From assembly GCF_003334315.1 (NCBI RefSeq), contig NZ_QOWR01000068.1: a DNA stretch of 20,473 bases. One strand, written 5' to 3'. The translations under genes were made by a program, and so were the position numbers. Source of the DNA: Escherichia coli (GTDB taxonomy: Bacteria; Pseudomonadota; Gammaproteobacteria; Enterobacterales; Enterobacteriaceae). The notes below the pieces were generated by a model that saw only the letters and a program-made list of their open reading frames with translations, did no database searches and was not told the DNA's origin. Positions 5,473 through 9,677 of this stretch are shown one piece after another. Every line of letters starts with the position of its first letter. The first letter of the stretch is position 1.

Positions 5473-5564
5473 AATCCGCGCACAATTGAAGCCAGAGTCT
5501 TATTTTTTATATTGAAAAATATGTTAATTTAAACACTATGAGAGATGATGCTTAACTTATCGTA

Positions 5565-5715: not shown

Positions 5716-7995
5716 ATGAAGAAAAAAATTGAATCCTACCAGGGTGCTGCAGGTGGTTGGGGTGCTGTTAAATCCGTAGCGAATGCAGTACGTAAGCAGA
5801 TGGATATACGCCAGGATGTTATTGCCATGTTTGACATGAATAAGCCAGAGGGCTTTGACTGTCCGGGTTGTGCATGGCCAGATCCTAAGCACAGTGCGTC
5901 ATTCGACATTTGTGAAAACGGCGCAAAAGCAATCGCCTGGGAAGTCACGGATAAGCAGGTAAACGCCTCTTTCTTTGCTGAGAATACGGTTCAATCATTA
6001 CTTACCTGGGGAGACCACGAGCTTGAGGCTGCGGGGCGACTCACTCAGCCTTTGAAATATGATGCCGTCAGCGACTGTTACAAGCCATTAAGCTGGCAAC
6101 AAGCTTTCGACGAAATTGGCGCACGCCTTCAAAGCTATAGTGATCCCAATCAGGTTGAATTCTATACTTCGGGCCGCACTTCCAATGAAGCTGCCTTTCT
6201 TTATCAGCTTTTTGCCCGTGAATACGGGAGCAATAACTTTCCCGACTGCTCCAACATGTGCCATGAACCGACAAGCGTGGGTTTGGCAGCGAGTATCGGT
6301 GTAGGTAAAGGGACCGTGTTGCTGGAAGACTTTGAGAAGTGCGATTTAGTCATTTGCATTGGGCATAACCCTGGTACAAACCACCCTCGCATGCTGACTT
6401 CGTTGCGCGCTTTAGTGAAACGGGGAGCGAAAATGATCGCCATCAATCCTCTACAGGAACGTGGCCTGGAGCGATTTACCGCACCGCAAAACCCGTTTGA
6501 AATGCTGACGAACTCTGAGACTCAGTTGGCCAGTGCCTACTATAACGTGCGCATTGGTGGCGATATGGCGTTGCTCAAGGGGATGATGCGCCTGTTAATT
6601 GAGCGCGATGATGCTGCAAGCGCCGCAGGTCGGCCTTCATTGCTTGATGACGAGTTTATTCAAACGCATACCGTCGGCTTTGACGAGCTACGCCGTGACG
6701 TTCTCAATTCCGAGTGGAAAGATATCGAACGTATTTCTGGACTAAGTCAGACACAAATCGCCGAACTGGCTGACGCATATGCCGCTGCCGAACGCACCAT
6801 TATCTGTTACGGAATGGGGATCACTCAGCACGAACATGGTACCCAGAACGTACAGCAACTGGTCAATCTGCTGTTGATGAAAGGTAACATTGGCAAGCCT
6901 GGTGCGGGTATCTGCCCACTACGTGGACACTCTAATGTACAGGGCGACCGAACCGTCGGTATCACCGAGAAACCGTCTGCAGAGTTTCTGGCTCGTCTGG
7001 GTGAGCGCTATGGCTTCACCCCACCTCATGCACCTGGACATGCTGCAATTGCCAGCATGCAAGCAATATGTACGGGGCAGGCTCGAGCATTGATCTGCAT
7101 GGGGGGCAATTTTGCGCTGGCAATGCCAGATCGGGAAGCGAGCGCTGTACCGTTAACGCAATTAGATTTGGCGGTACACGTAGCCACTAAGCTTAACCGC
7201 TCTCATCTGTTGACCGCACGGCATAGCTATATTCTGCCGGTCCTGGGACGTAGCGAGATTGACATGCAAAAAAACGGTGCGCAGGCGGTAACCGTTGAGG
7301 ATTCAATGTCGATGATTCATGCCTCGCGTGGCGTGTTAAAACCCGCCGGTGTAATGCTGAAATCAGAGTGTGCAGTGGTCGCGGGAATCGCGCAGGCAGC
7401 ACTACCCCAGAGCGTGGTAGCCTGGGAGTATCTGGTGGAAGATTATGATCGCATTCGCAATGACATTGAAGCTGTGCTGCCAGAGTTCGCCGACTATAAC
7501 CAGCGCATCCGTCATCCCGGTGGTTTTCACCTGATAAATGCAGCTGCTGAAAGGCGCTGGATGACGCCGTCAGGTAAGGCTAATTTCATTACCAGCAAAG
7601 GGCTGTTAGAAGATCCCTCTTCAGCGTTTAACAGTAAGCTGGTCATGGCGACAGTACGCAGCCACGATCAGTACAACACGACGATTTATGGTATGGATGA
7701 TCGCTATCGAGGGGTATTCGGTCAACGAGATGTGGTCTTTATGAGTGCTAAACAAGCTAAAATTTGCCGTGTAAAAAACGGCGAAAGAGTTAATCTTATT
7801 GCGCTTACGCCAGACGGTAAGCGCAGCTCACGCCGCATGGATAGATTAAAAGTGGTCATTTACCCTATGGCTGACCGCTCACTGGTGACCTATTTTCCAG
7901 AATCGAATCACATGCTAACACTTGATAACCACGATCCATTAAGTGGCATTCCTGGCTATAAAAGTATTCCGGTTGAATTAGAACCATCAAATTAA
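5716..7995 (+). CDS. ydeP: molybdopterin oxidoreductase, formate-dehydrogenase-like; acid-resistance protein, 759 aa
   Basis: Recognised sequence ([25 protein letters not shown]...); N-terminal Cys cluster CPGCAWPD; AGGA upstream. Confidence 0.9.
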
Positions 7996-8010
7996 TGCCT
8001 CTTCTCATTT

Positions 8011-8037
8011 CTTCTGCTGTCATCCGCACAGCAGAAG
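8011..8037 (+). terminator. stem-loop after ydeP (10-bp perfect stem, no U-tract)
   Basis: CTTCTGCTGT-catccgc-ACAGCAGAAG, 16 bp after the ydeP stop. Confidence 0.4.
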
Positions 8038-8113
8038 AATTCCTCATTGACTATTATTTCGCAATTTGCTCACATGGATTAAATTAAACTACATACTATA
8101 AGATATAAACTTC

Positions 8114-8131
8114 TGCCTACAGCTGTAAGAA
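8114..8131 (+). promoter_or_regulatory. EvgA-box-like dyad upstream of safA-ydeO
   Basis: TGCCTACA-GC-TGTAAGAA; same architecture as the ydeP site. Confidence 0.6.
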
Positions 8132-8242
8132 ACTCCGCTCAGTACTGAAGCACCAGTCCTATTTCCTCTTTTCTCCAGCCTGTTATATTAAGCATACTGA
8201 TTAACGATTTTTAACGTTATCCGCTAAATAAACATATTTGAA

Positions 8243-8440
8243 ATGCATGCGACCACAGTGAAAAACAAAATCACGCAAAGAGACAACTATAAAGAAATCA
8301 TGTCTGCAATTGTGGTTGTCTTATTACTGACACTTACGTTGATAGCCATTTTTTCGGCAATTGATCAGCTGAGTATTTCAGAAATGGGTCGCATTGCAAG
8401 AGATCTTACACATTTCATTATCAATAGTTTGCAAGGCTGA
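8243..8440 (+). CDS. safA: small membrane protein SafA (connector between EvgS/EvgA and PhoQ/PhoP), 65 aa
   Basis: Recognised sequence MHATTVKNKITQRDNYKEIMSAIVVVLLLTLTLIAIF... with a single transmembrane helix. Confidence 0.85.
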   Translation: MHATTVKNKITQRDNYKEIMSAIVVVLLLTLTLIAIFSAIDQLSISEMGRIARDLTHFIINSLQG

Positions 8441-8514
8441 AAACAAACAGCAAATTATAAATATGAAATGTTAAAAAAGTATCGATAAAAACTTTATTGT
8501 TTTAAGGAGATAAA

Positions 8515-9276
8515 ATGTCGCTCGTTTGTTCTGTTATATTTATTCATCATGCCTTCAACGCTAACATTTTAGATAAAGATTACGCCTTCTCTGACGGCGA
8601 GATCCTGATGGTAGATAACGCTGTTCGTACGCATTTTGAACCTTATGAGCGGCATTTTAAAGAGATCGGATTTACTGAAAATACCATTAAAAAATATCTA
8701 CAATGCACTAACATCCAGACAGTGACGGTGCCTGTTCCTGCGAAGTTTTTACGTGCTTCAAATGTACCGACTGGATTGCTTAATGAAATGATTGCTTATC
8801 TCAACTCGGAAGAACGCAATCATCATAATTTTTCAGAACTTTTGCTTTTTTCTTGCCTGTCTATTTTTGCCGCATGCAAAGGTTTCATTACACTATTAAC
8901 TAACGGTGTGCTATCCGTTTCCGGAAAAGTGAGAAATATTGTCAACATGAAGCTGGCGCACCCATGGAAGCTGAAAGATATTTGTGACTGCCTGTACATC
9001 AGTGAAAGCCTGTTGAAGAAAAAACTAAAGCAAGAGCAAACGACATTCTCACAGATTCTATTAGATGCCAGAATGCAGCACGCAAAAAATTTGATACGCG
9101 TAGAAGGTTCAGTCAATAAAATTGCCGAACAATGTGGTTATGCCAGTACATCTTATTTTATTTATGCGTTCCGCAAACATTTCGGCAACAGTCCGAAGAG
9201 AGTTTCTAAGGAGTACCGTTGTCAAAGTCACACGGGTATGAATACGGGCAACACGATGAGTGCTTTAGCTATTTGA
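8515..9276 (+). CDS. ydeO: AraC-family acid-resistance transcriptional regulator, 253 aa
   Basis: Recognised sequence; C-terminal AraC HTH (AEQCGYASTSYFIYAFRKHFGNSPKRV); AAGGAG 7 nt upstream; 74-bp gap after safA suggests an operon. Confidence 0.9.
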   Translation: MSLVCSVIFIHHAFNANILDKDYAFSDGEILMVDNAVRTHFEPYERHFKEIGFTENTIKKYLQCTNIQTVTVPVPAKFLRASNVPTGLLNEMIAYLNSEERNHHNFSELLLFSCLSIFAACKGFITLLTNGVLSVSGKVRNIVNMKLAHPWKLKDICDCLYISESLLKKKLKQEQTTFSQILLDARMQHAKNLIRVEGSVNKIAEQCGYASTSYFIYAFRKHFGNSPKRVSKEYRCQSHTGMNTGNTMSALAI

Positions 9277-9324
9277 TTATTTGCTAACGAGTAGTCAACC
9301 ACGCACGCTACGTAAGAATTATAT

Positions 9325-9357
9325 GGGGCAGCCATTCCCTGCCCCGCGTTGTTTTTA
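9325..9357 (+). terminator. intrinsic terminator after ydeO
   Basis: GGGGCAG-ccattcc-CTGCCCC followed by a T-rich run (gcgttgttttt). Confidence 0.6.
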
Positions 9358-9677
9358 GGCGATATATTTATTGAAATAAATAAGTGACATCCATCACATA
9401 TTTATGCACTTGCATAACCTGTTGCATGATTATTTATGATCTCAATTCGGCATTTTGTCAGTAAAATGCAATAATTTATTAAATATCAATAAATTAGTTG
9501 TTTATCGGCGAGAAATTACTTAATAGAACAGAAAGTAATGTCAACGCTTTATGGACTGTTATTTCCCTTTTTTTAGCTAAATCTGCTATCTCTTTATGTG
9601 ACTAACTTCACTTACATCCACTTATTTCTCTTCGTAAAATTACTTCGGAATTAAGTACAATAAGAAGAGGAACATTT

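Follow-up and report, generated by a model that had tools for sequence, protein, structure and literature searches.

The 401-bp gap between ydeO and ydeN of Escherichia coli very probably comprises the 3′ untranslated region (UTR) and terminator of ydeO (9277-9357), followed by the control region of ydeNM (about 9360-9677), and contains neither an RNA gene nor a peptide gene. Positions refer to the window, i.e., the whole stretch of 20,473 nucleotides analysed here (contig NZ_QOWR01000068.1, assembly GCF_003334315.1). The components of the gap are already in the literature: a NagC site list, occupancy by CRP, GadX, and AraC, and repression by GadX and AraC have been published. Because it holds these published sites and the ydeO terminator, we regard the gap as an ordinary regulatory spacer with no hidden RNA gene. 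Its AT-richness is the look of stacked AT-rich operators and promoter elements.

The ydeO-ydeN gap and the ydeO terminator

Open reading frame (ORF) translations give the gene order ydeP-safA-ydeO-ydeN-ydeM, that of the E. coli chromosome, with all five genes on the + strand of the window. With the last base of ydeO at 9276 and the first of ydeN at 9678, the gap spans 9277-9677; the layout in K-12 is identical, with a gap that is also 401 bp. A 601-bp query spanning the gap has a match in 5382 of 5426 complete E. coli genomes, and RefSeq annotates the flanks as ydeO and ydeN. A reading of the window made from its letters only (the sequence-only reading) had described about 400 bp without a credible ORF, unusually long and strongly AT-rich. 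The first part holds: we find no credible small ORF on either strand, and the sole wholly internal ORF of at least 30 aa is a 35-aa ORF with a TTG start. The length is not exceptional, since the gap is the longest in the window (others are 333, 311, and 254 bp) but an arbitrary, unrelated 45-kb stretch of K-12 has gaps of 332, 365, 379, 396, and 576 bp. The GC content is indeed low, at 32.7%, but does not stand out from the 32-36% of the neighbouring spacers.

ydeN is the gene of a periplasmic S1-family sulfatase and ydeM that of its radical-SAM maturase: YdeN matches S1 sulfatases, and the ydeM product scores 505 bits against an anaerobic sulfatase maturase model. The two genes form a cassette of patchy distribution across Gammaproteobacteria and Fusobacteria. 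Several observations concern their annotation and integrity. The start of ydeM is a TTG at 11397 in the mechanical ORF list and an ATG at 11412 in RefSeq, and a gene for the 40-aa YneP lies antisense to the ydeM 3′ end (12535-12657). An intragenic PhoB ChIP site of ydeN (TGTCAAAAATCAGTAATG) is found at about 10233-10250; the PhoB ChIP paper classed most intragenic sites of that kind as transcriptionally inert. In E. coli JX21CE8, a deletion leaves a 5′ ydeN fragment adjoining yddA (L021, 1504-2339), and E. coli Z1324SEC0014 carries IS1 copies in the ydeO 3′ end and in ydeN (L027, 1098-1795 and 2786-3378). On contig JARKOR010000108.1, from a metagenome-assembled genome labelled 'Candidatus Nanosynbacter', the products of ydeP-safA-ydeO-ydeN-ydeM are 99-100% identical to the E. 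coli proteins; it is all but certain that an E. coli contig was mis-binned.

The intrinsic terminator that the sequence-only reading had placed at 9325-9357 is present, at 9324-9357 on the + strand. Specifically, a G+C-rich hairpin lies on the coding strand 3′ of the ydeO stop codon (9274-9276), with a stem of 8 pairs (9324-9331/9339-9346) and a 7-nt loop, followed by the T-run TTGTTTTT at 9349-9356. The hairpin has a folding energy of -13.7 kcal/mol, and its 63-nt context one of -22.4 kcal/mol (z = -2.9); a terminator scan of 8000-10000 gives it as the sole terminator-like site. A G+C-rich stem of 7-8 bp, a 7-nt loop, and a T-run, starting here 48 nt past the stop codon, are features shared with Rho-independent terminators; unlike the canonical ones, the ydeO terminator has an interrupted T-run (GCG-TTGTTTTT), and its efficiency may therefore be moderate. 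The ydeO 3′ UTR occupies the 47 nt between stop codon and terminator (9277-9323, + strand). Nucleotide diversity of 9277-9360 within E. coli is 0.037, and the 3′ UTR is therefore unconstrained. The 3′ UTR is missing, and the terminator absent, from Escherichia albertii, a genome without ydeO, and the terminator is kept together with a ydeO remnant in Escherichia sp. MOD1.

The ydeNM control region

Published K-12 positions were placed in the window by the relation that window position equals 1590226 minus the U00096.2 coordinate, obtained from the gadB start site of Seo 2015 and K-12 gene spacing; the positions of three FITBAR sites confirm the map exactly. The proximal ydeN promoter has the -10 hexamer TAAAAT at 9635-9640 on the + strand, reported by the promoter scan as CTTACA-18-TAAAAT, and this hexamer is invariant in E. 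coli, E. albertii, and MOD1. The distances that Seo 2015 gives for two GadX peaks both converge on coordinate 1580578, which is window position 9648. From these distances and the -10 spacing we infer a transcription start near 9648 (9647-9649, + strand), 7-8 nt past the -10 hexamer, giving a 5′ UTR of ~30 nt. This short 5′ UTR has no unusual folding stability. The Shine-Dalgarno region GAAGAGG (9664-9670, + strand) precedes the ATG at 9678, and E. coli, MOD1, and E. albertii share, unchanged, the block AATAAGAAGAGGAA at this region.

Two NagC operators on the published list map to the control region. In particular, 'ydeN1 proximal' (CTTATTTCTCTTCGTAAAATTAC; FITBAR Table 1, and position 1580605 in Table 2) lies at 9621-9643, and 'ydeN2 middle' (GTTGTTTATCGGCGAGAAATTAC; FITBAR Table 1, and position 1580729 in Table 2) at 9497-9519, both on the + strand; the sources that FITBAR names for its NagC sites are El Qaidi & Plumbridge 2008 and a personal communication by J. 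Plumbridge. With a NagC matrix made from 8 characterised operators, both ydeN sites left out, the proximal operator scores 15.1 bits and is the top match in the 20-kb window (P = 0.007 against AT-rich random 401-mers). It covers the -10 hexamer of ydeN. Its matrix match, its overlap with a promoter, and its conservation upstream of orthologues mark it as a strong candidate NagC operator. The middle operator scores 9.1 bits with the same 8-site matrix (P = 0.35) and is therefore not significant on sequence alone; counterparts at equal distance from the ATG score 9.5 bits in Escherichia sp. MOD1 and 8.8 bits in E. albertii. For both operators, presumptive NagC binding rests on the published list. 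FITBAR also gives galP and the nag operon as NagC targets, and in a gut-adapted mutant ydeM is up along with nagABE and galP, which fits the proposed control by NagC.

The FITBAR label 'middle' implies a further 'distal' NagC site, and a matrix scan of the gap for such an operator placed none. A third copy of a repeat family (D1/D2), at 9348-9370, was considered for this role and rejected, as it scores -0.6 bits and overlaps the terminator T-run; an ancient tandem duplication of a ~149-bp module, which the same repeats had suggested, was likewise rejected (local alignment P = 0.08). Elsewhere in the window, an operator-like 23-mer (CTTATTTTTTATATTGAAAAATA) upstream of ydeP, at 5499-5521, is the second-best NagC match, with 14.6 bits; FITBAR Table 2 lists this site as reported for ydeP by other scanners also, and ydeP might share a NagC input with ydeNM. 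Another NagC-like 23-mer (GTTATTTAGCGACATAAAATGTT; 12.9 bits) lies at 2056-2078, in the spacer that precedes ydeT, a truncated usher gene.

Two matches to the CRP core with at most one mismatch occur in the 20-kb window, and both are inside the gap, where 0.009 are expected; none of 20000 composition-matched random 401-mers gave two. CRP site 1 (9383-9398, AGTGA-CATCCA-TCACA) lies ~257 bp upstream of the ydeN transcription start. It is identical to the ydeN-assigned site TGTGATGGATGTCACT of CRP ChIP-seq in ETEC H10407 and to a site of Footprint-seq with an estimated Kd of 1.8 nM, and CRP genomic-SELEX has ydeN among its targets. Its pentamers are invariant in ten E. coli strains, variation being confined to the N6 spacer. 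The published CRP occupancy of the spacer concerns this distal site, which is real; it is too far from the proximal promoter for direct activation, given the ~257 bp to the start, and could serve an upstream promoter or a loop.

CRP site 2 is a predicted site at 9597-9612 (TGTGA-CTAACT-TCACT) with a 9/10 match, invariant in the ten E. coli strains and also 9/10 in E. albertii and MOD1. Its centre is 42.5-43.5 bp before the start and 30.5 bp before the -10 hexamer, so that it would lie near -41.5, in place of a -35 element, as a putative class II site. The ydeN promoter thus resembles class II promoters such as galP1 (CRP at -41.5) in having a 9/10 core and no recognisable -35; the distance from the CRP centre to the first base of the -10 is 30.5 bp, against 29.5 bp expected for class II, i.e., 1 bp above the canonical spacing if the start is at 9647-9648. 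malE, malM, xylF, and treC, genes of sugar uptake or catabolism, are cAMP-CRP-dependent. At pH 4.4, ydeN is reported down by about 5 log2 units, alongside malE, malM, xylF, and treC, as would fit the proposed CRP control.

GadX and AraC have been mapped to the same region. Supplementary Table 3 of Seo 2015 lists a distal GadX ChIP-exo peak at 1580799-1580824 (labelled -233.5; 9402-9427 in the window) and a proximal one at 1580632-1580662 (labelled -69; 9564-9594), and GadX at the ydeN promoter reduces the ydeN transcript. A 7+2+7 dyad, TTATGCA-CT-TGCATAA (9402-9417), sits exactly under the distal peak, and a TTGCAT direct repeat (9410-9415 and 9422-9427) follows it; GadX may recognise this dyad. 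Binding of AraC upstream of ydeN requires arabinose, as shown by ChIP-qPCR with an amplicon at 9540-9634 (primers JW393, 9540-9558, and JW394, 9613-9634), and ydeMN is over-expressed in a delta-araC strain. An AraC site was taken to be two direct-repeat 17-bp half-sites of the TAGC-N7-TCCATA type. The best half-site, TAGCTAAATCTGCTATC at 9574-9590, is inside the amplicon and has 3 mismatches to the araI1-type pattern; such matches are at chance level, and the exact AraC site is therefore not placed.

A second promoter may exist, since the promoter predicted by Shimada for ydeN, in the RpoD holoenzyme genomic-SELEX table, is elsewhere, at 9455-9482 (TTGTCA-16-TATTAA, + strand). The promoter scan gives an overlapping candidate, TCGGCA-17-AATAAT, at 9447-9475, and RpoD, RpoS, and RpoH holoenzymes bind the ydeN spacer in vitro. 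E. coli strains differ at 9458 and 9459, in the -35 of the predicted upstream promoter, and E. albertii does not retain the element. The distal half of the gap (about 9360-9490) combines sigma-70-like hexamers with a GadX site and the high-affinity CRP site. That it forms a second module, with an upstream class I-type promoter or a third NagC operator, seems to us doubtful. If it did, the upstream promoter would have CRP ~92 bp before a start near 9482 and would give ydeNM a 5′ leader of ~195 nt; a third, 'distal' NagC operator would instead allow alternative repression loops that tune how a mucin-related sulfatase responds to amino sugars.

The sequence-only reading had also pointed to short dyads such as TTTATT-GA-AATAAA at 9367-9380. 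This dyad exists, with a full extent of 8+2+8 at 9365-9382 (TATTTATT-GA-AATAAATA), but the enrichment is mild: 1.5 perfect 6-bp dyads would be expected in the gap, and the 6 observed (P about 0.02) are nested and reduce to 3 independent ones. The dyad named above varies among E. coli strains at 9369 and 9370 and is not retained by E. albertii; it is probably incidental, close to chance. As a NagC site it was rejected, because overlapping 23-mers score 5.4-6.6 bits, at chance level, and its arms are 2 bp apart as against about 9 bp in NagC operators.

Conservation within and across genera

Within the species (ten E. coli strains aligned, about 96-100% identity), the gap has a nucleotide diversity of 0.033, compared with 0.024 at third codon positions of ydeO and 0.029 at those of ydeN; the last 87 bp of the gap are quieter, at 0.021. 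The spacer as a whole, for which the sequence-only reading had named conservation as a check, varies within E. coli at about the rate of third codon positions; across genera, a module of a CRP site and a NagC operator is kept.

In seven further genomes (E. albertii, Escherichia sp. MOD1, C. werkmanii, Cedecea, Mixta, Leminorella, and Grimontia), the highest NagC-matrix score within 400 bp upstream of ydeN falls on a 23-mer that is 37-46 bp away from the ATG in 7/7 cases, with P = 0.003-0.06 for the match in each genome. A random top match among ~380 positions would land in a 10-bp window with a frequency of ~0.026 per genome. Since the five non-Escherichia upstream regions have no blastn match to the E. 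coli spacer, the chance of the positional coincidence is, by our own arithmetic, about 1e-8. In Escherichia, C. werkmanii (8/10), and Leminorella (9/10), a CRP-like site precedes the operator with a centre-to-centre distance of 26.5-27.5 bp; Mixta has a degenerate version at this spacing (6/10). The module of CRP site and NagC operator at fixed distance from the ydeN ATG is thus found in Escherichia, Citrobacter, Leminorella, and Mixta, and the operator alone in Cedecea and Grimontia (Vibrionaceae); the matrix scan found no NagC operator upstream of ydeN in Anaerobiospirillum, Psychromonas, and Fusobacterium.

E. albertii (L005, 1804-2500) lacks ydeO and has an opposite-strand autotransporter-like gene upstream of ydeN, yet retains the two NagC operators as well as the two CRP sites, which are 218 bp apart; the ~300-bp control region is therefore that of ydeNM rather than of ydeO. 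MOD1-EC7003 (L006, 1908-2111 and 2040-2500) lacks the fimbrial genes, ydeP, safA, and the greater part of ydeO; there, hipBA adjoins a ~50-bp 3′ remnant of ydeO with its terminator, and the full ydeN control region is kept.

Alternative readings and proposed regulation

The sequence-only reading had offered two explanations of the gap, an unannotated small RNA and a promoter region silenced by a nucleoid protein of the H-NS type, in preference to simple spacer. A small RNA would be either a processed ydeO 3′ UTR or a transcript from a promoter inside the gap. The 47-nt 3′ UTR before the terminator suits the former, and the sigma-70-like hexamers at 9447-9482 together with holoenzyme binding in vitro suit the latter. 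A small-RNA gene should, however, have its own promoter and terminator and above-neutral conservation or a family match, and these are not what we find. A permissive Rfam search of 7900-10000 returned noise only, with nothing better than E = 5; the gap has no second terminator, in particular none downstream of the candidate upstream promoters, so that any transcript from them would run into ydeN; the fold of 9489-9700, a possible long leader, equals that of shuffled sequences (z = -0.5); diversity is 0.037-0.038 in the 3′ UTR and mid-gap, at least that of third codon positions; and the upstream hexamers vary in E. coli and are lost in E. albertii. The small RNA is therefore unsupported, and we consider it highly improbable. 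A small protein, encoded by the 35-aa TTG ORF (9498-9605) or by a 12-aa ATG ORF (9538-9576), has still less in its favour and is hardly credible. The 35-aa frame is open in 10/10 E. coli strains, but it has no upstream Shine-Dalgarno sequence, its substitutions alter 8 residues among the ten strains, and it overlaps the middle NagC operator and the AraC/GadX region; the ATG of the 12-aa ORF is lost in E. albertii. Among the supplementary-table entries covered for one ribosome-profiling study, none has coordinates in the gap, a weak negative.

H-NS filaments on an AT-rich spacer could silence a horizontally acquired ydeNM, in which case the specific regulators would act mainly as anti-silencers. 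The spacer is 67% AT within an AT-rich locus of patchy distribution, and the gap has a single 9/10 match, at 9486-9495, to TCGATAAATT, which we take to be the H-NS nucleation motif; the whole window has 7 such matches against 2.6 expected, however, so that the matches are not specific to the gap. The GC content is that of neighbouring spacers. Expression of ydeN is low under standard conditions (FPKM about 8-13), and H-NS sites are recorded for the nearby ydeP/ydeQ spacer. In these respects, i.e., AT-richness, an acid-resistance neighbourhood, and low basal expression, the gap resembles the H-NS-silenced gadA/gadX, hdeAB, and ydeP regions. It differs from them in that the genomic-SELEX table, an in vitro data set, leaves the ydeN/ydeO spacer unmarked while marking ydeP/ydeQ, and in that its conserved parts are discrete operators and not general AT-richness. 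A paper on extended protein occupancy domains (EPODs) makes no mention of the ydeN-ydeO locus. ydeN is, moreover, clearly under specific factors. The sequence-only reading was thus right in seeing a repressed promoter region and not plain spacer, but the documented repressors, NagC, GadX, and AraC, are sequence-specific. Silencing by H-NS as the main mechanism is in our view unlikely; H-NS may add a further regulatory layer.

Regulation of ydeNM by specific factors, the reading that we prefer, could work as follows. The core promoter would consist of the -10 TAAAAT and a poor -35, with a start near 9648. CRP site 2 would replace the -35, and, given this position, activation by cAMP-CRP is most likely of the class II kind. 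NagC bound to the operator over the -10 would block RNA polymerase, and the two NagC operators, 124 bp apart, probably loop with CRP between them, by analogy with nagE-nagB. GlcNAc-6-phosphate, from what is established for NagC, would release it and lift repression. GadX, from its two peaks, and AraC with arabinose further reduce expression, arabinose-bound AraC perhaps by interfering near CRP site 2.

The closest known system is nagE-nagBACD. Both regions have 23-bp operators with ends of the TTATTT...AAATAA type, one of them overlapping a promoter, and both have a CRP site between two NagC operators. The second operator is 95 bp away, start to start, at nagE-nagB and 124 bp away at ydeN. Whereas nagE-nagBACD drives divergent operons, the ydeN region drives a single operon in one direction. 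At ydeN, unlike at nagE-nagBACD, a CRP site in a class II-like position directly adjoins the proximal operator, and an extra distal CRP site and GadX and AraC inputs are present; looping at ydeN is our extrapolation from nagE-nagBACD.

The reading has little consequence past the hygiene of annotation: the gap is a dense, multi-input promoter whose parts are scattered in the literature. The CRP and NagC footprint across genera supports the proposal of a role of YdeN and YdeM in the scavenging of amino sugars (mucin or GlcNAc-sulfate), and it provides a concrete lead to the substrate of YdeN.
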